This document shows, in pieces, positions 4,904 to 63,996 of a DNA stretch of 64,000 nt. The stretch's first letter is position 1. Every line of letters begins with the position of its first letter. The stretch is taken from positions 1,574 to 65,573 of the forward strand of contig JBAZKH010000005.1 of the NCBI GenBank assembly GCA_041650935.1, in the 5' to 3' direction. The position numbers were made by a program, and so were the translations under genes. This stretch comes from Candidatus Omnitrophota bacterium (lineage in GTDB: Bacteria > Omnitrophota > Gorgyraeia > 2-01-FULL-45-10). The notes beneath the pieces were generated by a model, which searched no databases, was not told where the DNA came from, and was given only the letters and a program-made list of their open reading frames with translations.

Positions 4904-5829
4904 AGTATAGCGATCGAACTCTTTATCGCCTTTGCCGATGCGCGAAAAGCCGCATCCTCCTCTTTGGACAATCCCAGCTCTATTATCTTCTCGATGCCGT
5001 TTTTGCCTATCTTACACGGAACGCCGATAGCGACATCTCTGAGGCCGTACTCACCGTCCAGGCAGGCCGACGCGACCGCCGTCTGGTTTGTATCGCCCAA
5101 TACCATGGTTATCATTTTAAATACCGCGGCGCTGGGCGAGTAATACGCGCTTCCCGAACCGAAAAGGCCGACTATCTCGGCGCCCCTGTCACGCGTCCTT
5201 TTAACGATCGCATCCAGCCGCTCTTTAGGCAGCATCCCGGCCAGAGGCTTACCGGAAACCGTCGTTTTGGATAGAACGGGAACCATCGTGTCACCGTGGC
5301 TGCCCAGCATGTAGGTTTGTATTGATGAACGCGGGACATTAAGCTCTTCAGCCAGCAAATATATAAATCGCGCCGTATCTAAAAGGCCCGCCATGCCGAA
5401 GACCCGCTCTTTTTTAAAACCGGTGGCCTTAAGCGCCAGGTAGGTCATTGTATCCAGGGGATTGGTAACTATGATAACTATCGAGCCCGGAGCATAACAT
5501 TTGATATTTTCCGAAACACCCTTTACTATCCGGGCGTTTTTTGCAATAAGATCCTCGCGGGTCATGCCGGGCTTTCTGGCCAGGCCGGCGGTAACGACCA
5601 CTATATCGGATCCTTCTATTTTGGTGTAATCGTCGGTTCCCGTAATGGAGCGCTCGTGAGGAATTATGGGCGAGGCGTCAAGAAGATCGAAGGCTTTACC
5701 GACAGCCAGATTCTTGACTATGTCGAGAAGGACGACATCGGCCATGCCCGATTCGAGCACCCTATGGGCAAGCGTAGCGCCCACCGCCCCTGCGCCTATT
5801 ATCGAAACTTTTGAGACCTTCGCTGTCAT
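4900..5829 (-). CDS. mdh: Malate dehydrogenase (LDH-like family)
   Basis: 309 aa; 'IIGAGAVG' Rossmann motif, 'TAGLARKPGMTREDL' substrate loop typical of LDH-like MDH. Confidence 0.75.
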   Translation of the reverse strand: MTAKVSKVSIIGAGAVGATLAHRVLESGMADVVLLDIVKNLAVGKAFDLLDASPIIPHERSITGTDDYTKIEGSDIVVVTAGLARKPGMTREDLIAKNARIVKGVSENIKCYAPGSIVIIVTNPLDTMTYLALKATGFKKERVFGMAGLLDTARFIYLLAEELNVPRSSIQTYMLGSHGDTMVPVLSKTTVSGKPLAGMLPKERLDAIVKRTRDRGAEIVGLFGSGSAYYSPSAAVFKMITMVLGDTNQTAVASACLDGEYGLRDVAIGVPCKIGKNGIEKIIELGLSKEEDAAFRASAKAIKSSIAIL

Positions 5830-7410: not shown

Positions 7411-8669
7411 AGTCTATTCTTATGCTCCCTCGGATCCGTTATCCGGCCGGTAATTGCCGATGAGGCAACCGTAGCCGGGCTGGCAAGATATATGAATGAA
7501 TTCGGGTTACCCATCCTGCCCTTAAAGTTCCTGTTTGCCGTCGAGATCGCCGATTCCCCGTCGGCAAGAACACCGTTATGGGTGCCGACGCACGGCCCGC
7601 ATCCGGGGGCCACAACGATACAGCCTGACTTTATGAATATCTCTATAAACCCTTTCCTGACCGCATCGAGGTATATCTCCTTCGATGCCGGGGCGATGAC
7701 AAACCTTACATCGGGATGCACGCTTTTACCCTTCATTATCCGCGCGGCGGCCTCCAGGTCCTCGAGCCTGCCGTTAGTACAGGTGCCTACGTATGCCTGG
7801 TCTATCCGCGTACCGCTAAGCGCCGTGACATCGCTGACGTTATCTACCGCGTGAGGCTTCGCAACCTGCGGCGCAAGTTTCGAGACATCATAGGTCTTTA
7901 CGGCAGCGTACTTCGCCGCCGGATCCGCCGCAGTAGGATGAGGGGTCTTGAACGAGCGCTCTTTCACCCACTTCAGGACCTTTTCATCCGCTTCCATCAA
8001 TCCCGCCTTGGCGCCCATCTCGACCGCCATATTCGAAATGGTAAGGCGCTCATCGACGCTCATGGCCGATATCGTCTCTCCGCAAAATTCCACCGCTTTA
8101 TAGGTAGCGCCGTTCGCGCTTATATCTTTTATGATGTGAAGTATGACGTCTTTAGAGTAGACGCCCTTCGGCAGTTTGCCCTTTACGATAATCTTGATAG
8201 TTTCCGGGACCTTGAACCAGTTCTTGCCGCTCGCCAGAGTAATGGCGAGATCGGTCGAACCGACCCCTGTCGAGAAGACGTTTATAGCACCGTAAGTGCA
8301 GGTATGGGAATCCGCGCCCAGCACAAGATCGCCGCATGTGACATGCCCCTTCTGGGGAATGAGCTGATGGCATACGCCGCAGCCTATATCATACAACCCC
8401 AGATCGAAGGCCCCGGCAAAGGCCCGCATCTTCTTATGTATTTCGGAAACGCCTATGTTGGGACTCGGGGCGCTGTGGTCGATTACCATGCAGAACCGGG
8501 ATTTATCGAATACCCGATTTACGCCAAGTTTCCTGAAACTATCTATTATGATAGAGCTCGTGCCGTCCTGGCCAAAACAGAAATCGACGCCGCATATTGC
8601 TATGTCACCCGCTTTTAACTCTCTGCCGGCATGGTTTGAAAGTATCTTCTCCGCTATCGTCTTACCCAT
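7407..8669 (-). CDS. leuC: LeuC-like large subunit of aconitase-family hydro-lyase (archaeal-type, 420 aa)
   Basis: Fe-S cluster cysteines (CGPC..), 'GSCTNGR'-like motifs; overlaps leuD by 4 nt. Confidence 0.75.
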   Translation of the reverse strand: MGKTIAEKILSNHAGRELKAGDIAICGVDFCFGQDGTSSIIIDSFRKLGVNRVFDKSRFCMVIDHSAPSPNIGVSEIHKKMRAFAGAFDLGLYDIGCGVCHQLIPQKGHVTCGDLVLGADSHTCTYGAINVFSTGVGSTDLAITLASGKNWFKVPETIKIIVKGKLPKGVYSKDVILHIIKDISANGATYKAVEFCGETISAMSVDERLTISNMAVEMGAKAGLMEADEKVLKWVKERSFKTPHPTAADPAAKYAAVKTYDVSKLAPQVAKPHAVDNVSDVTALSGTRIDQAYVGTCTNGRLEDLEAAARIMKGKSVHPDVRFVIAPASKEIYLDAVRKGFIEIFIKSGCIVVAPGCGPCVGTHNGVLADGESAISTANRNFKGRMGNPNSFIYLASPATVASSAITGRITDPREHKNRL

Positions 8670-9828
8670 TTTTTGATATCCACTCCTCTATTCTGTCCAT
8701 CCCCTTCTTTATCGAGCCTGAGCCCGCGGCAAAACTCAACCGTATGACCGAATCGTCGCCGAACGGCTCTCCCGGTATGACCGCAACCCTGGCTTCGTCG
8801 AGAAGCCTGTTGGCGGCCTCCACCGAAGAGATCTTCAGCCCGGAGATATCGCATAAGACATAAAACGCCCCGTCCGGCCTGGTGCACGAAACCTTATTCA
8901 TCCCGCCTATCCTGGAGACCATAAGATCGCGCCTCTTTTCGAATTCGGCCCTCATCTCGGCGACACAATTCTGGTCACCCGTAATCGCGGCAAGAGCCGC
9001 CTTCTGGCTGATAGAGCACGGGTTGGAAGCCGCGTGGCTCTGTAGATTCGCAGCAGCCTTCATCACTTCCGCCGGACCCGCGGCATAGCCTATGCGCCAG
9101 CCGGTCATCGAGTGACTTTTCGACAGACCGTTCACCGTTATAGTACGCTCATAAATGTCTTTGCCGAGCGCGGCGATCGATATGTGCCTGACGTCACCGT
9201 AAACAAGCTTTTCGTATATCTCATCGCTTATAACATAAAAATTATGCTTTACGGCAAGCTTTGCGATAAATTTCAATTCCGCCTCCGAATATACGGAACC
9301 GGTGGGGTTCGAGGGGCTGTTCAATACCATACATCTCGTCTTCCGCGTTATGCCGGAGGCAAGCTCCTTTTCGGTAACCTTAAAATTATTTTTAGCTGTT
9401 GTCTTGAGAAAGACGGGAGTAGCGGAAGCTATGCCGGCCATCGCCGGGTAACTCAACCAGTAGGGCGCGGGTATAAGGACTTCGTCGCCGCCTTCGCATA
9501 ATACCTGGAATATGTTATTGAGCGAATGTTTCGCGCCGTTCGATACGACTATCTGCGCGATCGAATATTCGAGCGCATTATCTTTCTTAAATTTCCGCGC
9601 GATGGCTTCCCGTAATTCCTGCGTGCCGCTCGATGGAGTATACTTCGTAAAACCGCTTTTTATCGCTTCGATACCGGCTTCTTTTACATGCGCCGGCGTA
9701 TCAAAATCCGGCTCACCGGCCGCAAAGCTTACGACATCTATGCCTTCCTTAACCAGCTTCTTTGCCCTGGAGGTTATCTGAAGCGTTACCGATTCACCTA
9801 TGCCTGCCACTCTCTTAGCGAGCTTCAT
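8662..9828 (-). CDS. aspC: Aspartate/aromatic aminotransferase (class I PLP aminotransferase)
   Basis: 388 aa; 'SNGAKHS', 'NGLSKSHSMTGWRIGY' PLP-lysine region; AAGGAG SD 7 nt upstream of ATG. Confidence 0.7.
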   Translation of the reverse strand: MKLAKRVAGIGESVTLQITSRAKKLVKEGIDVVSFAAGEPDFDTPAHVKEAGIEAIKSGFTKYTPSSGTQELREAIARKFKKDNALEYSIAQIVVSNGAKHSLNNIFQVLCEGGDEVLIPAPYWLSYPAMAGIASATPVFLKTTAKNNFKVTEKELASGITRKTRCMVLNSPSNPTGSVYSEAELKFIAKLAVKHNFYVISDEIYEKLVYGDVRHISIAALGKDIYERTITVNGLSKSHSMTGWRIGYAAGPAEVMKAAANLQSHAASNPCSISQKAALAAITGDQNCVAEMRAEFEKRRDLMVSRIGGMNKVSCTRPDGAFYVLCDISGLKISSVEAANRLLDEARVAVIPGEPFGDDSVIRLSFAAGSGSIKKGMDRIEEWISKNG

Positions 9829-12718: not shown

Positions 12719-13112
12719 TGTCTTTCGTTACCGTCCTTTCTGCCTTTTGTCTTACAACACCTACGGTCTTCCTGGGGCCTTTCCTCGTCCTAGCATTCGT
12801 CCGCGTCCTTTGCCCCCTCACCGGCAGACCTTTCCTGTGCCTGAAACCTCTGTAACTCCCTATATCGATCAGTCTCTTGATATTGGCAGAGATCTCGCGG
12901 CGCAGGTCGCCTTCGACCTTGTAGTCTTTCTGGATAACCGACGACAGGCGCGCGATCTCTTCTTCCGTAAGATCTTTGGCGCGCTTATCCGGATTGACGT
13001 TCGCTATCTTCAATATCTTATTGGAAAGCGCCCGTCCTATCCCGTATATGTATCCCAACGCGATCTCTATTCTCTTCTCCTTAGGTAAATCAACACCAAC
13101 TATTCTCGGCAT
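12699..13112 (-). CDS. rpsM: 30S ribosomal protein S13
   Basis: 137 aa; AGAGGAGAG SD. Confidence 0.92.
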
Positions 13113-13211
13113 CTTCTCTCCTCTTAAACGACTGTCTTGTCGTTCGTCGTTCGTATATCGTATTTCGCAACCATGCAGCGATATACTAGCTGCGAACGAC
13201 TAACGACGAAA

Positions 13212-13325
13212 TTATCCCTGCCTCTGTTTATGTTTTGGATTCGCGCATATTATTATAAGCGTACCTTTGCGGCGTACGACTTTACATTTTGGGCAAATCT
13301 TCCGTATACTCGATCTGACTTTCAT
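13212..13325 (-). CDS. rpmJ: 50S ribosomal protein L36
   Basis: 37 aa [37 protein letters not shown]; absent from the ORF track (below 60 aa); found by hand translation. Confidence 0.85.
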
Positions 13326-13389
13326 GGTTCGGTACCCCTTTTAAACGATTTCGAACTCACCATGAACCCTACAGCCTTAAGGGTTCATG
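13326..13389 (-). repeat. Structured about 65-nt leader element (copy A) between infA and rpmJ
   Basis: CATGAACCC-loop-GGGTTCATG hairpin plus GTGAGTTCGAAA...AAGGGGTACCGAACC immediately before rpmJ ATG. Confidence 0.6.
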
Positions 13390-13611
13390 TTATTTTTCTC
13401 TCCGGATTATTCTTCCCCTCGAAAGATCGTAGGGCGACAATTCCAACGTCACGCTATCACCGGGGAGGATCCTTATAAAGTTCATCCTCATCTTTCCGGA
13501 AACATGCGCCAGCACCCTGTGGCCATTCGGCAGTTCTACCCTGAACATCGCATTGGGCAGAGTCTCCAATACTTTTCCTTCAACCGTTATCGCTTCTTCT
13601 TTCGGGCTCAT
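13390..13611 (-). CDS. infA: Translation initiation factor IF-1
   Basis: 73 aa S1-like OB fold. Confidence 0.92.
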
Positions 13612-16390: not shown

Positions 16391-16837
16391 TTATGCTTTT
16401 ATATACTCTGCTTTCGCGCCGGCCGATTCGAGAGCCCGCCGCGCGCTTTCCGAAAACCTTGCGGCCTTGACCGTCAGGGCCTTGGACAACTTCCCTTTTC
16501 CTAAAATCTTTACCGGCTCATTTACGCTTCCTATCAGGCCCGCTTTTTTGAATTCGACCGGCCCGACGGTAGAGTTGCTTTCGAAACGATTCAGGGATTC
16601 GATATTGACCACCTGATAACCGTTCTTGAATAACGCGTTAAAACCCTTTTTCGGGATGCGCCGTATAAGCGGCATCTGCCCGCCTTCGAATCCCGGCCTG
16701 GTCGTCCTGCCTGAACGTTTCAGGGCGCCCTTACGCCCGCGGCACGCATTCTTTCCATGACCGGATCCGCAGCCGCGTCCGCGCCTCTTAGTCTTTCTGT
16801 TTGCGCCTTTCGGCATCGGTATATCCGTTATCCTCAT
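16391..16837 (-). CDS. rplO: 50S ribosomal protein L15
   Basis: 148 aa; immediately follows rpsE, no rpmD in between. Confidence 0.9.
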
Positions 16838-17496
16838 ATGATCTTTCTTTCTAAGCGCAGCTTTTTAAGGCCCTCCATGGCCGCCTTCACAACGTTAAGC
16901 GCAGAATCCGATCCAAGGCTCTTGGTTAAAATATCCTTTATTCCGCCCGCCTCGCAGATTGCGCGCACAGCGCCGCCGGCTATTACACCGGTGCCTTCTA
17001 CCGCCGGCTTCAACAGAACTCTGGCCGCCTTATAATGGCCTATGATCTCGTGTGGGATACTCGTCCCTTTCAACGACAGCCTGAAGAAATTCTTCTTTGC
17101 GTCATTTAAACCTTTCCTGATAGCATCGGCAACTTCGTTTCCTTTACCGAAGCCGACACCCACACTCCCTTTTCCGTCGCCCGCGACTACCAGCGCATTG
17201 AAGGAAAACCTGCGGCCGCCTTTGACTACTTTGGCTACTCTCTTTATCGTAACAACTTTTTCAATCAGGCCGTCATCATCGGTTCCCCTGCCCTGTCCAC
17301 GCCGGCCGCCGTCTCTCTGCGACCTCCCGCCCTTAGGTCTTCTTGTGCGGGCGCGGGACTGCTGGGGAGCTCCGCCCTGCGCCGCGGCCGGGGCTTGCGC
17401 CGCTGTCGGTGCTTCAGGGGCTTTCCCTGCCGCAGCCTGGTCTTGGACTGGCGGAGTTTCCTTCTTCTCTTTATTATCGCTATCTGGATTTTGCAA
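16834..17496 (-). CDS. rpsE: 30S ribosomal protein S5 with about 75-aa A/P/Q/R/G-rich N-terminal extension (TTG start)
   Basis: Core S5 from '[23 protein letters not shown]'; first codon TTG at 17496 preceded by AAGAGGAGC SD 9 nt upstream; no internal Met before the core. Confidence 0.85.
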
Positions 17497-17522: not shown

Positions 17523-17891
17523 TTAAAACTTCACTCCGCCTTTACGAAGCGCATCAGCAAGCGTCTTCACCTTCCCATGATAAGTATATCCGGAGCGATC
17601 GAAGACGATAGCCGTAATACCCTTCTCCTTGCACATATCCGCAACCGCACTTCCGAGAAGCGCGGCGCCTTTGACATTTCCGGCGTCTTTCTTGATCTTA
17701 TCCTTAAGGAGCGGGGAATTGGTCGCGAGCGCTACAAGGGTACGCCCTTCCGCATCGTCAATCACCTGGACATAGGTATTCTTCAGGCTTCTGTAAACGC
17801 TCAGTCTGGGGCGCGCACTCGTTCCGGAAACCTTCTTCCGGATTATCTTATGCCTCCTTACCCTGCCTTCTATCTTTATCCACTTCTTCAT
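17523..17891 (-). CDS. rplR: 50S ribosomal protein L18
   Basis: 122 aa. Confidence 0.92.
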
Positions 17892-17990
17892 GGTTCGGTA
17901 CTCCCCTTAAATACTTTCGAACTCACCATGAACCCTACAGCCTGCCAAAGGGTCCATGGTTCGGTACCCCGCTTAAATTTTTACCTTCTA
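17892..17990 (-). repeat. Structured leader element (copy B, 1.3 units) between rplF and rplR
   Basis: About 85% identical to copy A, ends in AAGGGGAGTACCGAACC-ATG of rplR. Confidence 0.6.
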
Positions 17991-18551
17991 TTACGCGCCG
18001 CCGGGCCCGCCGGCGCCTGCCACAGCCTTACCGGCTTTGCGCCTTACGTGCTCACCGGCATACTTTATGCCTTTTCCTTTATACGGCTCCGGCCTGTAGA
18101 AATCCCTTATCTCCGCCGCAACCTCTCCGACCTTGGCCTTGTCGGTCCCTTTGATCGTGACAATATTGGGCTTGGGCGTTTCGACAGTAACTCCGTCGGG
18201 TATATTATAGTTGATCGGGTGAGAATAGCTCAACTGGAGGTTCAGGATTTTCCCCTGTACCGCGGCTTTGAATCCCACGCCGGTTATCTCCAGCTCTTTA
18301 TGATATCCGGCCGTAACCCCGATGATCATATTATTGACAAGACTGCGTATGAGCCCGTGAGTTGCCTTATCCTGCTTTGTATCGGACGGCCTGGCTATCA
18401 CAACAACGTTATCCTTGACCTCGACCTTAAAGCCGGGCTTAAAAGAATAGTTAAGCTTACCTTTCGGTCCTTCTATAGTTATTGTATTCGCGCTTACCGC
18501 GGCTTTTACGCCGCCGGGTATTGCAACCGGTTTTTTACCTATACGTGACAT
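17991..18551 (-). CDS. rplF: 50S ribosomal protein L6
   Basis: Start placed at Met24 of the track ORF (MSRIGKKPV), AGAGGAAG SD; track ORF extends to 18620 overlapping rpsH. Confidence 0.88.
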   Translation of the reverse strand: MSRIGKKPVAIPGGVKAAVSANTITIEGPKGKLNYSFKPGFKVEVKDNVVVIARPSDTKQDKATHGLIRSLVNNMIIGVTAGYHKELEITGVGFKAAVQGKILNLQLSYSHPINYNIPDGVTVETPKPNIVTIKGTDKAKVGEVAAEIRDFYRPEPYKGKGIKYAGEHVRRKAGKAVAGAGGPGGA

Positions 18552-18966: not shown

Positions 18967-19060
18967 CTTATCATCTCCTATGACTACTCGTCTCGTTATT
19001 CGCCGTTCGCATTTAGTATATCGCAGCAAAAATACGACATACGAACGACTAACGATGAAT

Positions 19061-19246: not shown

Positions 19247-19295
19247 TTTTTCGTCTTTCGTTATTAGTCATCCGCATCCCGTCACGATATACGAT

Positions 19296-25871: not shown

Positions 25872-27148
25872 TTTTTCGTCTTTCGTCGTTTTCTTTCGTT
25901 GTGCGTTGTTAGCTGCGCGTTGATCGAACAACGCGCACCGGGCAACTATTCTATAACTTCGGTCACTACCCCTGCGCCAACGGTATGTCCGCCTTCACGT
26001 ATCGCGAACCTTAACTCTTTCTCCATGGCTATGGGGGTAATCAAGACTACTTCGAACTGGACGTTATCGCCGGGCATTACCATCTCCACGTCTTTAGGGA
26101 GGGTAACGACTCCGGTAACGTCTGTGGTCCTGAAGTAGAACTGGGGTCTATATCCGTTGAAGAAGGGCGTATGACGGCCGCCTTCTTCTTTGCTCAGGAT
26201 GTATACTTCCGCTTTGAACTTGGTATGGGGCGTGATCGATCCGGGCTTTGCCAGGACCTGGCCGCGCTCTAAGTCTGTCTTTTCAATACCTCTTAACAGG
26301 ACGCCGATATTGTCTCCGGCCTGTCCTGAGTCGAGGAGCTTCCTGAACATCTCAACACCTGTAACAACGCTCTTTTTAGTGGGTTTTATACCGACTATCT
26401 CTATCTCCTCGCCTACTTTTATCTGACCGCGCTCGACCCTGCCTGTTCCTACCGTGCCGCGTCCTGTTATGGAGAATACGTCTTCTATAGGCATAAGGAA
26501 AGGCTTATCGAGGGCTCTCTGGGGCTCGGGGATGAAGGTATCGCATGCATCCATGAGGTCGAATATGGGCTTTACGGCATCGGCCGCATCCGGCTGTGTC
26601 ATCGCCTTCAACGCGCTTCCTCTTATTACAGGGGTCTTATCTCCTGCGAATTTATACTTTGTGAGGAGCTCTCTTACTTCGAGCTCAACTAAGTCTACAA
26701 GCTCTTTATCTTCTACCAGATCTACCTTGTTTAAGAATACCACGATCGATGGGACGTTAACCTGGCGGGCCAGGAGGATATGCTCACGGGTCTGGGGCAT
26801 CGGGCCGTCTACGGCGCTTACTACGAGTATTGCCCCGTCCATCTGGGCGGCTCCGGTTATCATATTCTTGATGTAGTCGGCGTGTCCCGGGCAGTCTATA
26901 TGGGCGTAATGGCGCTTGTCCGTCTCGTACTCTACGTGGGCTACCGCTATCGTGACGGTCTTGGTTTCATCTCTTACGGTACCGCCCTTGGCGATATCGG
27001 CGTAGGACTTTACCTGCGCTTTGCCTTTCTTGGCAAGAGTAGCGAGTATCGCTGCTGTAAGAGTAGTCTTACCGTGGTCGATGTGGCCTATGGTGCCTAT
27101 ATTGACATGCGGCTTACTTCTTACAAACGTTTCCTTTGCCATAAATTT
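25866..27148 (-). repeat. Duplicated segment: tuf copy 1 plus about 65 nt 3' flank with hairpin GCGCGTTG-ATCGAA-CAACGCGC
   Basis: Identical to 41468-42728 apart from one synonymous substitution seen near the 5' end and an indel at the 3' border. Confidence 0.85.
25946..27142 (-). CDS. tuf: Elongation factor Tu (copy 1)
   Basis: 398 aa GHVDHGKT...; AGGAGA SD. Confidence 0.95.
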
Positions 27149-29290: not shown

Positions 29291-29335
29291 TTTATTTCTT
29301 TTTTCGAACAACGAAAAACGAACAACGGTTTTTAC

Positions 29336-40128: not shown

Positions 40129-40180
40129 TTTTTCGTATCTCGCATCTCGTATTTCGTAAACGAAATACGAACGACGGTTT

Positions 40181-40711: not shown

Positions 40712-40770
40712 TTTTACTTATCTCGTATTTCGTATCTCGTAAACGATATACGAAATACAAACTACGATTT

Positions 40771-41467: not shown

Positions 41468-42728
41468 TTCTCGTCTTTCGTTGTGCGTTGTTAGCTGCGC
41501 GTTGATCGAACAACGCGCACCGGGCAACTATTCTATAACTTCGGTCACTACCCCTGCGCCAACGGTATGTCCGCCTTCACGTATCGCGAACCTTAACTCT
41601 TTCTCCATGGCTATGGGGGTAATCAAGACTACTTCGAACTGGACGTTATCGCCGGGCATTACCATCTCCACGTCTTTAGGGAGGGTAACGACTCCGGTAA
41701 CGTCTGTGGTCCTGAAGTAGAACTGGGGTCTATATCCGTTGAAGAAGGGCGTATGACGGCCGCCTTCTTCTTTGCTCAGGATGTATACTTCCGCTTTGAA
41801 CTTGGTATGGGGCGTGATCGATCCGGGCTTTGCCAGGACCTGGCCGCGCTCTAAGTCTGTCTTTTCAATACCTCTTAACAGGACGCCGATATTGTCTCCG
41901 GCCTGTCCTGAGTCGAGGAGCTTCCTGAACATCTCAACACCTGTAACAACGCTCTTTTTAGTGGGTTTTATACCGACTATCTCTATCTCCTCGCCTACTT
42001 TTATCTGACCGCGCTCGACCCTGCCTGTTCCTACCGTGCCGCGTCCTGTTATGGAGAATACGTCTTCTATAGGCATAAGGAAAGGCTTATCGAGGGCTCT
42101 CTGGGGCTCGGGGATGAAGGTATCGCATGCATCCATGAGGTCGAATATGGGCTTTACGGCATCGGCCGCATCCGGCTGTGTCATCGCCTTCAACGCGCTT
42201 CCTCTTATTACAGGGGTCTTATCTCCTGCGAATTTATACTTTGTGAGGAGCTCTCTTACTTCGAGCTCAACTAAGTCTACAAGCTCTTTATCTTCTACCA
42301 GATCTACCTTGTTTAAGAATACCACGATCGATGGGACGTTAACCTGGCGGGCCAGGAGGATATGCTCACGGGTCTGGGGCATCGGGCCGTCTACGGCGCT
42401 TACTACGAGTATTGCCCCGTCCATCTGGGCGGCTCCGGTTATCATATTCTTGATGTAGTCGGCGTGTCCCGGGCAGTCTATATGGGCGTAATGGCGCTTG
42501 TCCGTCTCGTACTCTACGTGGGCTACCGCTATCGTGACGGTCTTGGTTTCATCTCTTACGGTACCGCCCTTGGCGATATCGGCGTAGGACTTTACCTGCG
42601 CTTTGCCTTTCTTGGCAAGAGTAGCGAGTATCGCTGCTGTAAGAGTAGTCTTACCGTGGTCGATGTGGCCTATGGTGCCGATATTGACATGCGGCTTACT
42701 TCTTACAAACGTTTCCTTTGCCATAAAT
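41468..42728 (-). repeat. Duplicated segment: tuf copy 2 plus 3' flank hairpin
   Basis: See copy 1. Confidence 0.85.
41528..42724 (-). CDS. tuf: Elongation factor Tu (copy 2; protein identical to copy 1)
   Basis: 398 aa identical protein; one synonymous difference seen near the 5' end (ATA/ATC Ile codon 15); GGAGGGA SD. Confidence 0.95.
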
Positions 42729-58011: not shown

Positions 58012-61000
58012 TTACAACGACTTGAGAACGGCTGCGTCACGTTCGTGGAACTCGACTATCTCCTTCGTATCTATCGGTCTTATTCTGATCAGTATTAGAC
58101 CCGTCGCTAATAGCTGCCGAATTCCGCTGGCGTCCATTTTGGCAAGTTCATCTAAAAGCACTTCGTAACTAGCTGACCCAGCGATAGCCGCAATACCTCG
58201 AATAAAACGTTCTGTGGATTCATTGATCTTGCTAATATCTATTGTCGACCTGGCCATTAGATCTGAACGATTCAGAAACTCTAACCCCGTCATGCCGCAG
58301 GTTCCAACAGGAGTAGCGGTTTTGCCTATCTCGCCTGTCATGTAGACAACATATGAGGCAGATTCCAATTTACCATCTCGTTTATCGCCTTCTTTTTGAT
58401 AAGCGAAAGTAATGACCCTCTTCTGCTGCGTATCTTTATCTGGTATTTCCTTTTGCACTGATACAATCAACGCTTGCCGCCCTTCAGGAGTATCTCTAAA
58501 AAGATTGACCGTGATATTATTACTCAGGTTACATCTAATTATTAGCCTGCTCACCTCATTCTTTGGTTGCGCAGCATAGCGTTGGTATGCTTCAAAAACT
58601 TGGTCGGCGAATTCTTCGCTGATAGGTATATTTATCATACCTGGTGCGCCATCAAAAATCTGTTTTTCGCATCGATTTTTAATCTCTTGGTCTATAGCTC
58701 TCATAATGTCTATCCAACCTGACCAGCTATCGCTTGCATTAGCAATTTCAAGACCTTGAATCTGTACTGCTTTTTGACCTAGCGCGTTAGAAACAACAGA
58801 AACAGGTATAACCGGCATCTCGCCTGTGGCAGAATCGCCACGTTCTATCTTCTTAAATTTAATTCTTGGTCTTTGCGTATCGGATACTCTGCTACTATCC
58901 TGTTGTCCTCTTTGTTCTTTAAGCGATTCTAAACGATTCATAATTGTCCGGACCATGCTATATGGAAACATTTGTGTCCCAACAGTTGAAGTCCCGGATA
59001 AACTTTGCTGTCCGCTTCCTTTTACTCTATCTGCTATCGTGCGAAAACTTATCAAAGCTTCTTCCATTGCCCTAGCGTCGATTCTTTCACTTACATAGCT
59101 ATCGATAATATTTCTAGCTTCTATTTCATTTCGTTCACGCCACTGTTTTTCATGAAAAGTTTCATACAATATTCTTAATCCATGCTGTTGATTACTTACG
59201 TAACGTATAGCACCTATTAACAGTGCAATCTCTGTATTTTCCCAGCCGCTTAAGATATCTTCCGGCATTTCACCAGTAGCTGAGTCGCCGCGAGCTGGTG
59301 ATGCATTTGTGATATCACTTATATAAATACCAAATTGCTCCCCTGTTAACCAAATGAGAGAAGCAGGGCCGGGAGTTATTAATCTAATCGTACCTGTTGC
59401 TTGCTTCGGTTGCCCAGTATAGTGATCGTTCCACTGAATTGTAATTGGCGCTTTGCTAGCCATCCACGTATTATATTGTTCAAGTCCATCCTTGCTAGCA
59501 ACGACAGGCTTTCTTTCCGGTAACTCGCTTGACTTATGGGGCATAAGGATTTCATGCTGAACTAACCATCTTACGATGGCCTCACCACTTATATTTGAAA
59601 GATCCGTATCCGGAGGCAGTCTATTTGTTAATTCGTGCACAGAGAGCATTTGTTCACGAAGTCCGTTCAACGAGCATTCTGCTATTATCCACGAATCCCT
59701 TGGATGCGCTTGAGCATTTATATCCGTATTCTTAATTCTCTCCGCAAGTTGTGATGGGGTCTTGGCATCTTGAGAGCTAGGTAATTTATTATCAGACTTC
59801 ATAGTAGTTAAAGTACTAGTGAATTTTATTGGCGAAACAAGTCTCATATTTAAACCTTCGCCTTCGATAGCCGATAACAAAATGTTGCGCGTAAGGTCAT
59901 GAAGCTGTCCGTTCGACTGAAGCATGTTTAGTATTTTTAGATGATTTTCATTCTCAGCCCCACCCCATATCTTATGATCTGGATTACGGGCTTTTCTTAC
60001 TAGTTCGACAAAAAGCTCCGGTCTGCTTTCTAGCAGATGCTGGAGGGCCACCATTACAGCATTAATGCCGTCTCGATACGCAAAAGCACCATTCTTGAGA
60101 ATCACTGTATCTGGCATTTCACCCGTTGCAGAGTCACCACGAGTCGCTCTTCTCTCATCATCCTCTCGTATGAGTCTATTTGCTTTTGCAACCCATGCGC
60201 TTAGTTCCTGAGCGCTCTGATTTGAAAAATTGGTGTTCCAAAATGATTCATGAAAATTCCTTGCCCTCAACGTATCTGCAAGCCGATTCGCATAATCTAT
60301 CAGCTCTCTTCTGTCCGTTGGACTGGTAGCAAGAGGCATACTACCTGCTATCTCAACCGGCGGGTTTAATGCTCCCTGCGATATGAATCTAGCGCTTTTT
60401 AATTGTTCTGCCAATTCGGGCGATATGTTTTTAGGCATTTCTCCTGTAGCAGAATCGCCGCGGATCTTGGTATCACTAGTTGGTGTTCCTGCTATAATCA
60501 ATGCACCTTCTGGAACTAATTTTAAATCGCTAGTCCAAAATGTATTGTCGTTACGCGCCAATAGAGAGAAATCTTGCGTGGTTGGACCAGCGCTTACTTC
60601 CCATTGATTTGATGTATTGACCCGACTAAAAATAAGTTCTTTAACAATTGTTCCTCTATCGCTATCAAGTGTAAAGAAAACTGAAATCTTAACAACATTC
60701 CCAGCCGCATCTTTAGTTACTCTGCTATTCTGCGGTCTTACTGATCCAGATCGCCACGCTATGGCTTCTAATACGTTTCTTAACGAAATACTGTTACGAT
60801 CCGATACGCCCTTATTCAATAAGTCACTCATTGTTAATATCGGCTCAACTTCTGTAACCTCCGACAATGTTTGAACTAAATGGCTATTTTGCACATCAAG
60901 CAACCTTTGGTAAATAACCTTTTCGGGCGGATTAACCAACGTACTCTCCGCGATGCTCTCTGTCTGTGGACTTATAAGAGTAAGGCCGGAAATACGCTCT

Positions 61001-63996
61001 GTGTCGGTTTCAGAAATTAATCGAATTGGTAATGGCCATCTCAACGCTCCGACATGCGGAGATCCCTTTTCTTTTTTATTATAATCTTGATAAAAATCGT
61101 CTTTTACCACAGCACAAATTTCGTTATCTTTGTCGAAACCGAGACAAATGAGAGGATTTGGACCTTTGTAAACATAGTTAACAACCCACCGAAGTAATTC
61201 TCCTGACATTGGAGTACGAAATACTTGTGTTTGTTCTGGGCCAAATGAGATAACGTGTTTCTCATGGTCTGCTACGCGTGCCCCTTCTTCAAACGCAATT
61301 GTTTCGCCATTTGTCAGCGTAATATCTAATTGGTGAGCAAAACGGCTATGTTGTCTCTCAAACGTATAGTCATCTATAGGGTGCGCATCGCCTGGCGATG
61401 TCGTTATAGCAGAAATCATCCTATCATTGCCTCTGCTCCATAATATCGCTCGCTCATCGTCTGGCAATATCTTATATTTTCTTCTTCCTAATATTTCGGG
61501 TGCTTTTATACGCAGAATTTCAAAGATTTTAGTAAGGATTGTAGGGTTCTCAGCTATAGTGGCATTTTTAGGCATTTCACCTGTGGCAGAGTCGCCGCGA
61601 GGACGTGCATCATATCCATGTATCATCCCATACGCGATGTCTTGAACATCGGAAGCGGCTGGTAAGTACCCTAAAGGATGCGCTGACCAAAAGCTTTCCG
61701 TTCTATGTGTAAATAAGCTAAGCCATGCCCTAAAGGCATCCCTGTCAGGTTCTGGGACATCTAACATATCCGCAATTTTATCAGAGTTAAGTACAATGGG
61801 GCTTAACGCTGGGTTCATCAAATAGTAATTGTAGAATTGAATAAACGGCACTAACCCATTTCGCGGAAGTGAAGTAACCTCAGTGTCAGGTTTATTGGGC
61901 ATCTTGCCTGTGGCAGAGTCACCACGGACAGGCTTCCCGGTAATCATCTTCTCTGTCTCTGCGGAAACCTTGTCAAATATATCCAACAGTCTTGCTCGTA
62001 ATTTGTTTCTCTCACCATATTCGTAAGTTGAAGTCGAGCTTAAATTTCTTCGAGATAACATTGTTATATCGGAATCCCGTTTTTCTTTGTCCGACGCCAA
62101 AGTCTCTTTTATTCTATTCCAATCTTCTTGCGTAGTCGCTGATTGTACCGCATGATTTAAATTTTCCAACATGTTCCATAGAGTGCTATATACATTACCA
62201 GCTCTCGTTTCAAAATAAGTAGGCGGCTCGAATTGTCTGATAATGTCATATCCTATTGAGACTAAGTTCCTGATTCTTCCCTTTGTTACGGCAGTGGTAT
62301 CTTTTACAGATTCTGAACTCTGGCCTGCATCTGGTGGCATTCTTCCCGTGGTAGAATCGCCACGAGTTGTCGCAATAGTTTCGATTCTATTACGAATTTC
62401 ATTTTTCATTCCTTCTGAAAATCCGTCAAAATTTTTATTGAATCCAGTGTTATATATGCGATTAAATATATCTTCTCTTATCTCTAGCTGGTTGGGATTC
62501 GACATGTTAATACTTCCTGTTGAGCCGGGAACATGTGCACGTAGCCATTTTTTGCCTTGTTTCATTTTTTGAACTAAAACTGATTCTCCGTCTTGCATGG
62601 TTTGGTTAACAATGTCTATGGCTTCTAGATGCATAAAAACATCCAACCTAAATGATATATCAGGATGTGCCGCCATAGATTCAGCATTCGTTGCATGGAT
62701 ATTATTTAAATCTCGAGTGGTGGGTAGTTGCCCGATTTCTAATACATAGGCAACAACTTTATTTACATAGTCGCTCAATCTGTATCCTGCTTCTTCAATT
62801 ACGGGCATAAGAGAATCCTTGCCTGACAGTCGGGAATCTAAATAATTGGCAATAAGATCATCGGCGATAGCCTGAACCAGCCGTTGCCGATTTGCTAAAC
62901 GCGATGCTTCTTCTGGTAATCCTGGTTGCGTTTGCTCTGTAGGCATTTCACCTGTAGCGGAGTCGCCGCGAGTCAAACCCTTTTCAATCTTTGCCAGTAT
63001 TTCTCCGACTTTAACCTGTGATACTTCCGGATCATTATTGGCATGCTGTATTTCCGTGCCGGTCTCTAAATAATATGTTGCGGCATTTAATTCGTGGAGT
63101 AGATAGTCAATGAACTCATTATTGTCTCCGGTATAAGTAACATTTACCCCGTAGCCGCGACTGAAAGATGCGATGCGCCACGGTATGACGGACTTATCTT
63201 TGCCTGTTACAACATGAATTAAGCCCTTGGATGCGCCAAATGGCTTGTTACCTATCTCGATAAGCTTTGCTACGTTCTCTTTGCCAATTTTGGCCTCTAA
63301 GGCTTTGGAAAGATCTGGAGCAAGGAAATCTGCTAACAAATGCGCCTCTAACCCATCGTATGTTTCATTAGGAGTATGCGCCATCTTGAGCAATAAGTCC
63401 CACATCGCTTGATGCCCTGGACAATCTTCTCTCGGCCAAAGTTTGTGATCAAATATGATTATATTTTCAAAACTCGGATCATAAGTTTCGTTCCCTTCCC
63501 TGACCGCATATAATGACTTACCCGCAATCTCGCCTACTTTTTCATTGAAACTTCCCGTTTGCGGTTCATGCGTTAATCTTAGGTACCCTCCGGGAACCAT
63601 TAAAAGAATCCCTTTCTTGGGATTTGCCTCCAAAGCACTTATAATATCGGCTGACAACGCAAATATATTTCTGTCGCGAGCACCTACTATCCCCATTTCA
63701 GAAAGTACTTGTGGAACAGCTATATTAGAAATACGTGATTCTACTATGGTCTCAATATGGCTTTTACCGCCTGAAAGTATTTTGAAATACGGGTTTTCGA
63801 TATCCGTTTTCTCAAATTTCGGCATTACCTCTATATATGAGTATCCCTTATTCTTTAATAGCTTTGAGAGGTTGCCGGTATGAAAACCGCCGGTTACAAG
63901 AATTGTTACATCCTTCTTTTCAGCTTTAAACTTATTCGCTATATTTTTTATGAAAGCATCGTCTCTTTTCTGGGAATATACATAGAACTTCTCCAT
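58012..63996 (-). CDS. Giant protein of unknown function (at least 1994 aa; possibly 5'-truncated by window edge) with 8 copies of RGDSATGEMP
   Basis: Long uninterrupted minus-strand ORF; motif copies at about 62943, 62335, 61899, 61571, 60434, 60113, 59264, 58813; no recognisable domains. Confidence 0.7.
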   Translation of the reverse strand: MEKFYVYSQKRDDAFIKNIANKFKAEKKDVTILVTGGFHTGNLSKLLKNKGYSYIEVMPKFEKTDIENPYFKILSGGKSHIETIVESRISNIAVPQVLSEMGIVGARDRNIFALSADIISALEANPKKGILLMVPGGYLRLTHEPQTGSFNEKVGEIAGKSLYAVREGNETYDPSFENIIIFDHKLWPREDCPGHQAMWDLLLKMAHTPNETYDGLEAHLLADFLAPDLSKALEAKIGKENVAKLIEIGNKPFGASKGLIHVVTGKDKSVIPWRIASFSRGYGVNVTYTGDNNEFIDYLLHELNAATYYLETGTEIQHANNDPEVSQVKVGEILAKIEKGLTRGDSATGEMPTEQTQPGLPEEASRLANRQRLVQAIADDLIANYLDSRLSGKDSLMPVIEEAGYRLSDYVNKVVAYVLEIGQLPTTRDLNNIHATNAESMAAHPDISFRLDVFMHLEAIDIVNQTMQDGESVLVQKMKQGKKWLRAHVPGSTGSINMSNPNQLEIREDIFNRIYNTGFNKNFDGFSEGMKNEIRNRIETIATTRGDSTTGRMPPDAGQSSESVKDTTAVTKGRIRNLVSIGYDIIRQFEPPTYFETRAGNVYSTLWNMLENLNHAVQSATTQEDWNRIKETLASDKEKRDSDITMLSRRNLSSTSTYEYGERNKLRARLLDIFDKVSAETEKMITGKPVRGDSATGKMPNKPDTEVTSLPRNGLVPFIQFYNYYLMNPALSPIVLNSDKIADMLDVPEPDRDAFRAWLSLFTHRTESFWSAHPLGYLPAASDVQDIAYGMIHGYDARPRGDSATGEMPKNATIAENPTILTKIFEILRIKAPEILGRRKYKILPDDERAILWSRGNDRMISAITTSPGDAHPIDDYTFERQHSRFAHQLDITLTNGETIAFEEGARVADHEKHVISFGPEQTQVFRTPMSGELLRWVVNYVYKGPNPLICLGFDKDNEICAVVKDDFYQDYNKKEKGSPHVGALRWPLPIRLISETDTERISGLTLISPQTESIAESTLVNPPEKVIYQRLLDVQNSHLVQTLSEVTEVEPILTMSDLLNKGVSDRNSISLRNVLEAIAWRSGSVRPQNSRVTKDAAGNVVKISVFFTLDSDRGTIVKELIFSRVNTSNQWEVSAGPTTQDFSLLARNDNTFWTSDLKLVPEGALIIAGTPTSDTKIRGDSATGEMPKNISPELAEQLKSARFISQGALNPPVEIAGSMPLATSPTDRRELIDYANRLADTLRARNFHESFWNTNFSNQSAQELSAWVAKANRLIREDDERRATRGDSATGEMPDTVILKNGAFAYRDGINAVMVALQHLLESRPELFVELVRKARNPDHKIWGGAENENHLKILNMLQSNGQLHDLTRNILLSAIEGEGLNMRLVSPIKFTSTLTTMKSDNKLPSSQDAKTPSQLAERIKNTDINAQAHPRDSWIIAECSLNGLREQMLSVHELTNRLPPDTDLSNISGEAIVRWLVQHEILMPHKSSELPERKPVVASKDGLEQYNTWMASKAPITIQWNDHYTGQPKQATGTIRLITPGPASLIWLTGEQFGIYISDITNASPARGDSATGEMPEDILSGWENTEIALLIGAIRYVSNQQHGLRILYETFHEKQWRERNEIEARNIIDSYVSERIDARAMEEALISFRTIADRVKGSGQQSLSGTSTVGTQMFPYSMVRTIMNRLESLKEQRGQQDSSRVSDTQRPRIKFKKIERGDSATGEMPVIPVSVVSNALGQKAVQIQGLEIANASDSWSGWIDIMRAIDQEIKNRCEKQIFDGAPGMINIPISEEFADQVFEAYQRYAAQPKNEVSRLIIRCNLSNNITVNLFRDTPEGRQALIVSVQKEIPDKDTQQKRVITFAYQKEGDKRDGKLESASYVVYMTGEIGKTATPVGTCGMTGLEFLNRSDLMARSTIDISKINESTERFIRGIAAIAGSASYEVLLDELAKMDASGIRQLLATGLILIRIRPIDTKEIVEFHERDAAVLKSL

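Follow-up and report, generated by a model that had tools for sequence, protein, structure and literature searches.

A small hairpin repeat at the start codons of rpmJ and rplR in an Omnitrophota ribosomal-protein operon: a probable lineage-specific insertion cassette

Few bacterial gene arrays are as compact and conserved as the ribosomal-protein operons, in which a stop codon usually overlaps the next start and the translation of neighbouring genes is coupled. Structured RNAs of such operons include the autoregulatory leaders of ribosomal-protein genes, for which the S8 site at rplE and the rpsM pseudoknot bound by S4 are examples in E. coli; these leaders mimic a site in the rRNA and are retained from one related genome to the next. 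Another type of short structured sequence, the REP/BIME palindrome, is recognized by a 20-40-bp palindrome, a GTAG or CGTC tag at one end and a high copy number. These palindromes are mobilized by RAYT transposases, as described for GTAG-tagged REPs (PMC3733652). MITEs such as Correia, ERIC and RUP are defined by terminal inverted repeats. A further layout is found in the Neisseria REP2 repeats and the IR repeats of Borrelia plasmids, which lack inverted termini, contain two internal stem-loops and end in a 3' RBS and ATG fused to the downstream ORF (Delihas 2011, PMC3184786). REP2 also bears a promoter and is located upstream of some 14-26 dispersed, co-regulated genes (PMC3184786).

The repeat described herein lies in a ribosomal-protein operon on the minus strand of a 64-kb window, that is, the whole stretch of Candidatus Omnitrophota DNA that was analysed. 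Gene identities were taken from NCBIfam, which also named the neighbours S13, Map, S5, S8, S14 and L5. Copy A (CATGAACCC...GGGGTACCGAACC; 64 nt, 13326-13389, minus strand), delimited by sequence and repeat alignment, is exactly the spacer between the stop codon of infA (13390-13392) and the ATG of rpmJ (13325-13323). The upstream gene encodes IF-1 (73 aa; 13390-13611, minus strand; TIGR00008, E = 7e-35) and the downstream gene the ribosomal protein L36 (37 aa; 13212-13325, minus strand; TIGR01022, E = 4e-19). Read from the infA stop, the order is TAA, C-ATGAA-CCC, the loop TTAAGGCTGTA, GGG-TTCAT-G, GTGAGTTCG, AAATCGTTTAA-AAGGGG-TAC-CGAACC and the ATGAA of rpmJ. A CATGAA direct repeat, read from the sequence, thus stands at both ends: the 5' occurrence at 13384-13389 and the 3' occurrence, which holds the rpmJ start codon, at 13321-13326 (both minus strand). 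The ATG of the 5' occurrence (13388-13386) opens a three-codon ORF, AUG AAC CCU UAA (13388-13377), one base past the infA stop, and its position appears to correspond to the ancestral rpmJ start of the relatives. Hairpin 1 (13361-13389, minus strand; predicted at -14.0 kcal/mol) is made of the 5' arm CATGAACCC (13389-13381), the loop (13380-13370) and the 3' arm GGGTTCATG (13369-13361). Hairpin 2 (13324-13360, minus strand; predicted at -8.8 kcal/mol) pairs GTGAGTTCG (13360-13352) with CGAACCAT (13331-13324) and carries the Shine-Dalgarno (SD) sequence AAGGGG (13340-13335) in its apical part.

Copy B (99 nt, 17892-17990, minus strand; sequence and repeat alignment) holds 1.3 units and is likewise exactly the spacer between the rplF stop codon (17991-17993) and the ATG of rplR (17891-17889). 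The gene rplF encodes L6 (17991-18551, minus strand; NCBIfam), with the homologous start MSRIGKK at 18551 in an ORF that is open to 18620, and rplR encodes L18 (122 aa; 17523-17891, minus strand; TIGR00060, E = 4e-32). The 5' side of the copy begins with TAGAAGGTAAAAA (17978-17990, minus strand), which, by its similarity to CAAGGTGGACAT in the relative L011, is the probable remnant of an ancestral short spacer with its old SD. It is followed by the extra 0.3 unit TTTAAGCGGGGTACCGAACC (17958-17977, minus strand), a second SD-bearing tail before ATGGA, and by the full unit ATGGACCC...GGGGAGTACCGAACC (17892-17957, minus strand). The predicted arms of hairpin 1 lie at 17958-17950 and 17935-17927 and those of hairpin 2 at 17926-17918 and 17897-17890, with predicted energies of -20.8 and -9.6 kcal/mol, respectively, and the SD AAGGGGAG is at 17908-17901. 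A putative 16-codon mini-ORF can be read in the sequence of this copy (17907-17957, minus strand); it is opened by the 5' occurrence of the direct repeat, the extra SD precedes it, and it ends at a UAA overlapping the rplR SD.

The two copies share a 57-nt ungapped match at 89% in the repeat search and are about 86% identical in a gapped alignment, with a loop indel of 3 nt. Their 21-mer GGGTTCATGGTGAGTTCGAAA occurs exactly twice in the 64-kb window versus zero times in 100 shuffles, while the SD-bearing tail GGGGTACCGAACCATG occurs three times, the third being the 0.3 unit of copy B. Neither exact-word counts nor blastn-short revealed copies other than A and B in the window, and no transposase or donor copy was seen there. 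The identity continues through the ATGAA of both rpmJ and rplR and then stops sharply, as it does on the 5' side at the upstream stop codon or the old spacer, and the flanks are otherwise unrelated. A direct repeat, (C)ATGAA, in which the start codon is contained, bounds both copies, and each SD stands 7-9 nt upstream of the AUG. The preliminary description of this DNA, which had reported two copies about 85% identical upstream of L36 and L18, a downstream AUG belonging to the element and a 9-bp hairpin with an 11-nt loop, agrees with these results; the hairpin is CAUGAACCC-N11-GGGUUCAUG in copy A, and copy B has a 14-nt loop and one G.U pair. The repeat is not an assembly artefact, since contigs of other assemblies carry the copies identically: copy A is found base for base in L033 (ENA, 100% over 8.2 kb) and L034 (Logan), and copy B in L001 (Logan). 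Extension of the window's contig yielded about 1.3 kb more, from short Logan contigs.

Compared by layout, the closest described kind is the REP2 and Borrelia IR repeats. Like these, the window element comprises two hairpins, an SD and an ATG, lacks inverted termini and is fused to the ORF that follows. REP2, however, carries a promoter, whereas a scan of the coding strand for the sigma-70 type gave no such site in either copy; in addition, the element is known from two sites in the 64 kb, both of them stop-start junctions within a polycistronic ribosomal-protein operon, and has the (C)ATGAA direct repeat at its flanks. With MITEs the element shares its small size, non-coding and hairpin-forming character, presence or absence between relatives, short flanking direct repeat and co-transcription with its neighbours. 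However, the terminal inverted repeat that defines MITEs is missing from it: the ends CCCTTAAGG... and ...GGTACCGAACC are not complementary and have only the palindromic CATG in common. A short G+C-containing palindrome in an operon spacer, together with a GTAG (CTGTAGGG), recalls REP/BIME sequences, but this GTAG is placed in the loop and 3' arm of hairpin 1 rather than at the outer end of the palindrome, the SD tail is long and non-palindromic, there are two copies in 64 kb, and no RAYT gene was seen in the window. As in ribosomal-protein leaders, the RNA overlaps the SD and start codon of a ribosomal-protein gene in the spc/alpha cluster; in contrast to them, it is absent from the orthologous junctions of relatives and matches no Rfam family. 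An integron attC site, a tRNA-like T-arm (GAGTTCGAAA) and a GTAG-type REP were also considered and dropped, as their defining motifs are absent. Literature searches returned no description of Omnitrophota repeats or of start-codon-targeting MITEs or cassettes.

Homologous Omnitrophota operons were collected through the relatives of L18. In most of those compared, both junctions are 2-12 nt long or overlapping (TAATG). The L6-L18 spacer measures 12 nt (CAAGGTGGACAT) in L011, L012 and L013, the closest relative, whose L18 is 84% identical to that of the window, and 5 nt in the P0011 contigs (81%). It is 2 nt in L015, L016 and L019 (75-76%), 3 nt in L017 and L018 (72%) as well as in L028 (74%), and 4 nt in L029 (76%). 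The infA-rpmJ comparison covers more distant relatives, the contig of the nearest one ending in map; here the genes overlap (AAAAATAATGAAAGT or AAAAATGAAAGT; TAATG/ATGA) in L015, L016, L017 and L029 and are separated by 2 nt in L028. In searches for exact matches, from which diverged copies with an altered core would escape, the core GGTTCATGGTGAGTTCGAA had nine hits in 185,579 GTDB species genomes, all due to chance or coding and some of them in conserved genes. In the same way, GTAGGGTTCATGGTGAGTT gave seven chance matches in JGI metagenomes, none with the remaining element, and the 21-mer was absent from IMG/VR viral contigs. A blastn-short search of both copies against ten related or same-sample loci and the window returned the known copies alone. 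At gathering thresholds, Rfam identified only three tRNAs in the window, and permissive scans yielded noise with E > 3. Since the junctions of relatives are short or overlapping and the core has no true match in the collections searched, a lineage-specific insertion is indicated, and A and B appear to be insertions later than the split from the relative with 84% identity. The earlier proposal of a conserved operator, riboswitch or processing site shared by the two genes does not fit these data: the element is missing from the short junctions of most relatives, so that its pairing is not conserved across homologous operons, and it matches no Rfam family. Its other suggestion, a small mobile or structured repeat that has colonized the operon, is the one favoured by the comparative evidence.

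Other hairpin cassettes were found in the same operons of related bacteria. In the locus of GCA_030648405.1 (L014) there are four elements, each some 90-110 nt long and bounded at its termini by a perfect inverted repeat of 13 bp (CCCMGCACCTTCT...AGAAGGTGCKGGG). They occupy the L4-L23, L14-L24, S5-L15 and infA-L36 junctions (1675-1774, 5626-5729, 9067-9183 and 12727-12826), at the starts of L23, L24, L15 and L36. A comparison of filled sites with the empty sites of relatives gave a 4-bp TGAA duplication at RTGAA start codons in all four cases, for example TAA C ATGAA GGACCC as against TAA C A-TGAA-(element)-TGAA-GGATCC. This family is a true MITE, with a proven TGAA target duplication. The locus has 98 TGAA sites, eight of them at gene starts, a ratio that is confounded by selection against insertions into coding sequences. 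The SD of these elements (AGAAGGTG) lies inside the 3' repeat and is paired with the 5' repeat (CACCUUCU) in the predicted fold, and owing to the G at their end the downstream gene starts with GTG. An open frame of 32 codons, which overlaps the genes on either side by ATGA and GTGA, is preserved in copies 1 and 4, themselves 95% identical. The RTGAA start-codon target and the donation of an SD are shared with the window element. Inverted repeats of this type are absent from the window, and a scan of IMG/VR gave three chance matches.

A second family consists of a hairpin and a TGCAATRGTATRAGG..GGC tail followed by ATG. It is located at L6-L18 in the same L014 locus (7934-8000) and at L16-L29 in L015 (4931-4988), L016 and L019, and its arms covary between L014 and L015 (ATGAAACC/GGTTCCAT against ATAAAACC/GGTTTTAT). 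The L014 copy also contains a 16-codon ORF that ends at the TAA of the SD (TAAGGG), equal in length to the ORF of copy B. Furthermore, unrelated hairpin inserts of about 70 nt are present at infA-rpmJ in L035 (279-350) and L036 (1431-1500). The former has two perfect 8-bp hairpins, the first directly after the TAA, and the latter reads ATGA-(CCC...GTCGAAGG)-ATGA. The infA-rpmJ junction looks like an insertion hotspot. In L036 the map-infA spacer (944-1208) is 265 nt long versus 12 nt in the window. From the inserts in L014, family 2, L035 and L036, together with those of the window, hairpin cassettes appear recurrently to colonize ribosomal-protein junctions in this clade, with the (A/G)TGA(A) of a start codon as their usual landing point. 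The more general idea is only tentative: Omnitrophota might harbour a set of small mobile cassettes that target (A/G)TGA(A) starts at tight junctions, regenerate the start and bring their own SD, sometimes paired to an anti-SD-like arm. The window element would then be a member without terminal inverted repeats, in which the TTCAT complement might serve target recognition or a ribosome-sensitive switch.

For the window itself, the explanation we regard as fairly probable is that both A and B derive from one small, non-autonomous repeat cassette, some 60-65 nt long, which was inserted in this lineage only and whose transposition-like arrival we infer. The cassette would consist of a hairpin followed by the SD-bearing tail. 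It would have landed on (A)TGAA within the ATGAA that starts rpmJ and rplR, at junctions which in relatives are tight, translationally coupled stop-starts. Of the (C)ATGAA direct repeat left by the insertion, the 5' copy would lie next to the upstream stop and make up the 5' arm of hairpin 1, and the 3' copy would serve as the working start codon; the AUG would appear to be part of the element for this reason. A fresh SD (AAGGGG or AAGGGGAG), placed 7-9 nt before the regenerated AUG, would come with the cassette, and therefore the essential downstream gene would still be translatable. Its tolerance in an essential, compact operon could thus be due to the regeneration of both SD and start codon. 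Copy B would have arisen by two insertions into the regenerated target, in succession or in tandem, with the first insert now cut down to its 20-nt tail. Some findings weigh against such a cassette. Just 2.3 copies are known, in one operon and one orientation within the 64-kb window, and the lack of a terminal inverted repeat beyond the palindromic CATG means that it is not a canonical MITE. Moreover, a TAATG ancestor needs only one duplicated nucleotide, so that ATGAA could be cassette-borne rather than a target duplication. Finally, the stems of A and B are identical except for one A-U to G.U change in hairpin 1, a comparison that spans 2.3 copies, and identical stems with an A-to-G change that keeps the pair are also expected under selection for RNA structure.

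This last point leads to the best of the alternatives, a lineage-specific translational switch, perhaps co-opted from an insertion, with a control logic common to rpmJ and rplR. The 3' arm of hairpin 1 (GGGUUCAUGG) would pair either with the start-like copy by the upstream stop, in which case hairpin 2 is weak, or with the real start (CCAUGAA), and access to the rpmJ and rplR starts would change as ribosomes finish infA or rplF or translate the mini-ORFs. The predicted folds contain the required three-way complementarity. In copy B, hairpin 1 is CAUGGACCC-N14-GGGUUCAUG, extendable to 12 bp, and in both copies hairpin 2 pairs GUGAGUUCG with CGAACCAU in a stem that includes the A and U of the start codon. 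Pairing of the hairpin 1 3' arm with the true start (UUCAUGGU/ACCAUGAA) is predicted at -12.3 kcal/mol for A and -13.1 kcal/mol for B and is mutually exclusive with hairpin 1. As a prediction, then, the earlier proposal that the SD and start codon can be sequestered through an alternative pairing stands, and both are enclosed in hairpin 2 as well. Copy A alone has z = -4.3, with 0 of 200 shuffles as stable, and copy B has z = -2.1 to -2.7. In copy A, the SD has a mean unpaired probability of 0.38 and the start codon one of 0.33-0.38. Over positions -14 to +10, it is 0.38-0.42 at the filled junctions of the window versus 0.72-0.75 at the empty ones, and filled junctions in relatives are predicted to be close to the window values or slightly above. 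With the SD and AUG enclosed in a structure of moderate stability, translation of rpmJ and rplR probably starts less readily or depends on unfolding, and a lineage-specific regulatory side effect of the cassette is possible.

A terminating ribosome was mimicked by masking 16 nt from the upstream stop and refolding the prediction. In copy A, the start-codon accessibility fell from 0.38 to 0.05, since the 3' arm, once released, pairs with the real start. This drop favours the switch, as do the identical stems with their sole, G.U-compatible arm change and the covariation of the family 2 arms. Yet the same masking left copy B unchanged, and in the L014 elements the accessibility of the SD or start codon rose in some (for the SD of the infA-L36 element, from 0.15 to 0.56) and changed little in others. 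A uniform coupling in which the ribosome unmasks the RBS was accordingly rejected. Against a shared control logic also stand the absence of the element from homologous operons, the lack of covariation within the window family (2.3 copies) and the fact that the three-way complementarity is an automatic outcome of a direct repeat combined with a hairpin. A switch common to both genes is therefore unlikely; a three-way switch for copy A, without a logic common to the other elements, is possible on the basis of the predicted folds.

The insertion cassette must also be weighed against an origin that does not involve mobility, in which one spacer evolved locally and gave rise to the other in a single event, be it tandem duplication or else recombination or gene conversion at the ATGAA microhomology. 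The restriction to two sites 4.5 kb apart with the same orientation, the partial tandem array of copy B and the lack of inverted termini would all be in line with such an event, and gene conversion is active in this genome, as judged from the two tuf (EF-Tu) genes. Over 1255 nt, of which 58 nt belong to a hairpin-bearing spacer downstream (GCGCGTTGTTCGATCAACGCGC), these genes (25892-27146 and 41474-42728) have 99.92% identity, which points to ongoing gene conversion. However, A and B are only 86-89% identical and hence are not being homogenized. In addition, the start codons of relatives carry unrelated cassette families, including one that has an inverted repeat and whose target duplication is proven, and several unrelated families at start codons speak for a general insertion process. 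Local copying is consequently considered a decidedly unlikely origin.

Many further junctions of the window bear lineage-specific hairpin spacers, namely L5-S14, S14-S8, L36-S13, secE-nusG, nusG-L11, L23-L2 and S19-L22. Short-repeat hairpins rich in CGTA/ACGA (e.g., TCGTATTTCGT...ACGAAATACGA) fill the L36-S13, S14-S8, L5-S14, S7-fusA, nusG-L11 and secE-nusG spacers on the minus strand (13113-13211, 18967-19060, 19247-19295, 29291-29335, 40129-40180 and 40712-40770), and several of them end in ACGAAAGACGAAAAA-ATGGC. At the three comparable junctions (L36-S13, S14-S8 and L5-S14), the spacers are much shorter in the loci of relatives. A hairpin motif (...GATTAAGCGGTYAGG...) is common to the spacers S19-L22 (22635-22683) and L23-L2 (23792-23836), both on the minus strand, and may represent a third family of small repeats in this operon. 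Apart from the spacers, S5 (16834-17496, minus strand) starts at a TTG and has a low-complexity N-terminal extension of about 70 residues, its length being matched in several relatives (220 aa in L011 and L016). There is no L30 gene between S5 and L15, which overlap by 4 nt. At the far end of the window, a 35-nt motif (CCGGCATTTCACCTGTAGCAGAGTCGCCGCG-like) recurs at least eight times in an ORF of 1994 residues (58012-63996, minus strand), suggesting a giant protein of repeat domains.

The abundance of such hairpins in the operon could be invoked for another role, that of an mRNA processing or stability element acting as an RNase site or as a 3'-protective stem that segments the transcript and sets the amounts of the flanking mRNAs. 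Effects on mRNA stability have been reported for REP, ERIC and Correia repeats (PMC3184786), and the stems of the window element are predicted to be stable and directly follow stop codons. They are, however, only 9-12 bp long, which is short for RNase III. No U tract of the terminator type follows the stems, neither copy has an intrinsic terminator consensus, and the fused SD and AUG are left unexplained, making this role very improbable. That the repeat encodes a micropeptide (MDPLAGCRVHGEFESI of copy B, with its own SD) is scarcely credible: a frame is common to A and B across the 3-nt loop indel, with both ending at a TAA in the SD region, and the L6-L18 spacer of L014 also has a 16-codon ORF ending at TAAGGG, but copy A has an in-frame stop at codon 4, the B and L014 peptides are unrelated except for M-x-P, and a frame is kept by chance one time in three, with no evidence of homology.

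In the window and in several related Omnitrophota, the junctions of ribosomal-protein operons have thus repeatedly taken up hairpin cassettes of 60-130 nt on the start codon, with replacement of the ribosome-binding site. For annotation, this calls for caution, as repeats of this sort should not be taken for conserved riboswitches or leaders. The wider Omnitrophota pattern is the more interesting lead, comprising several families of start-codon cassettes, one of which combines a TGAA duplication with an SD in its inverted repeat. If the cassettes are mobile and target start codons, they would be natural insertions that spare an essential gene by means of portable translation-initiation signals, and a source of lineage-specific shifts in the control of ribosomal-protein stoichiometry. 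Should such a start-codon-targeting set prove true, its members could colonize even essential, coupled ribosomal-protein operons and rewire the coupling between neighbouring genes.
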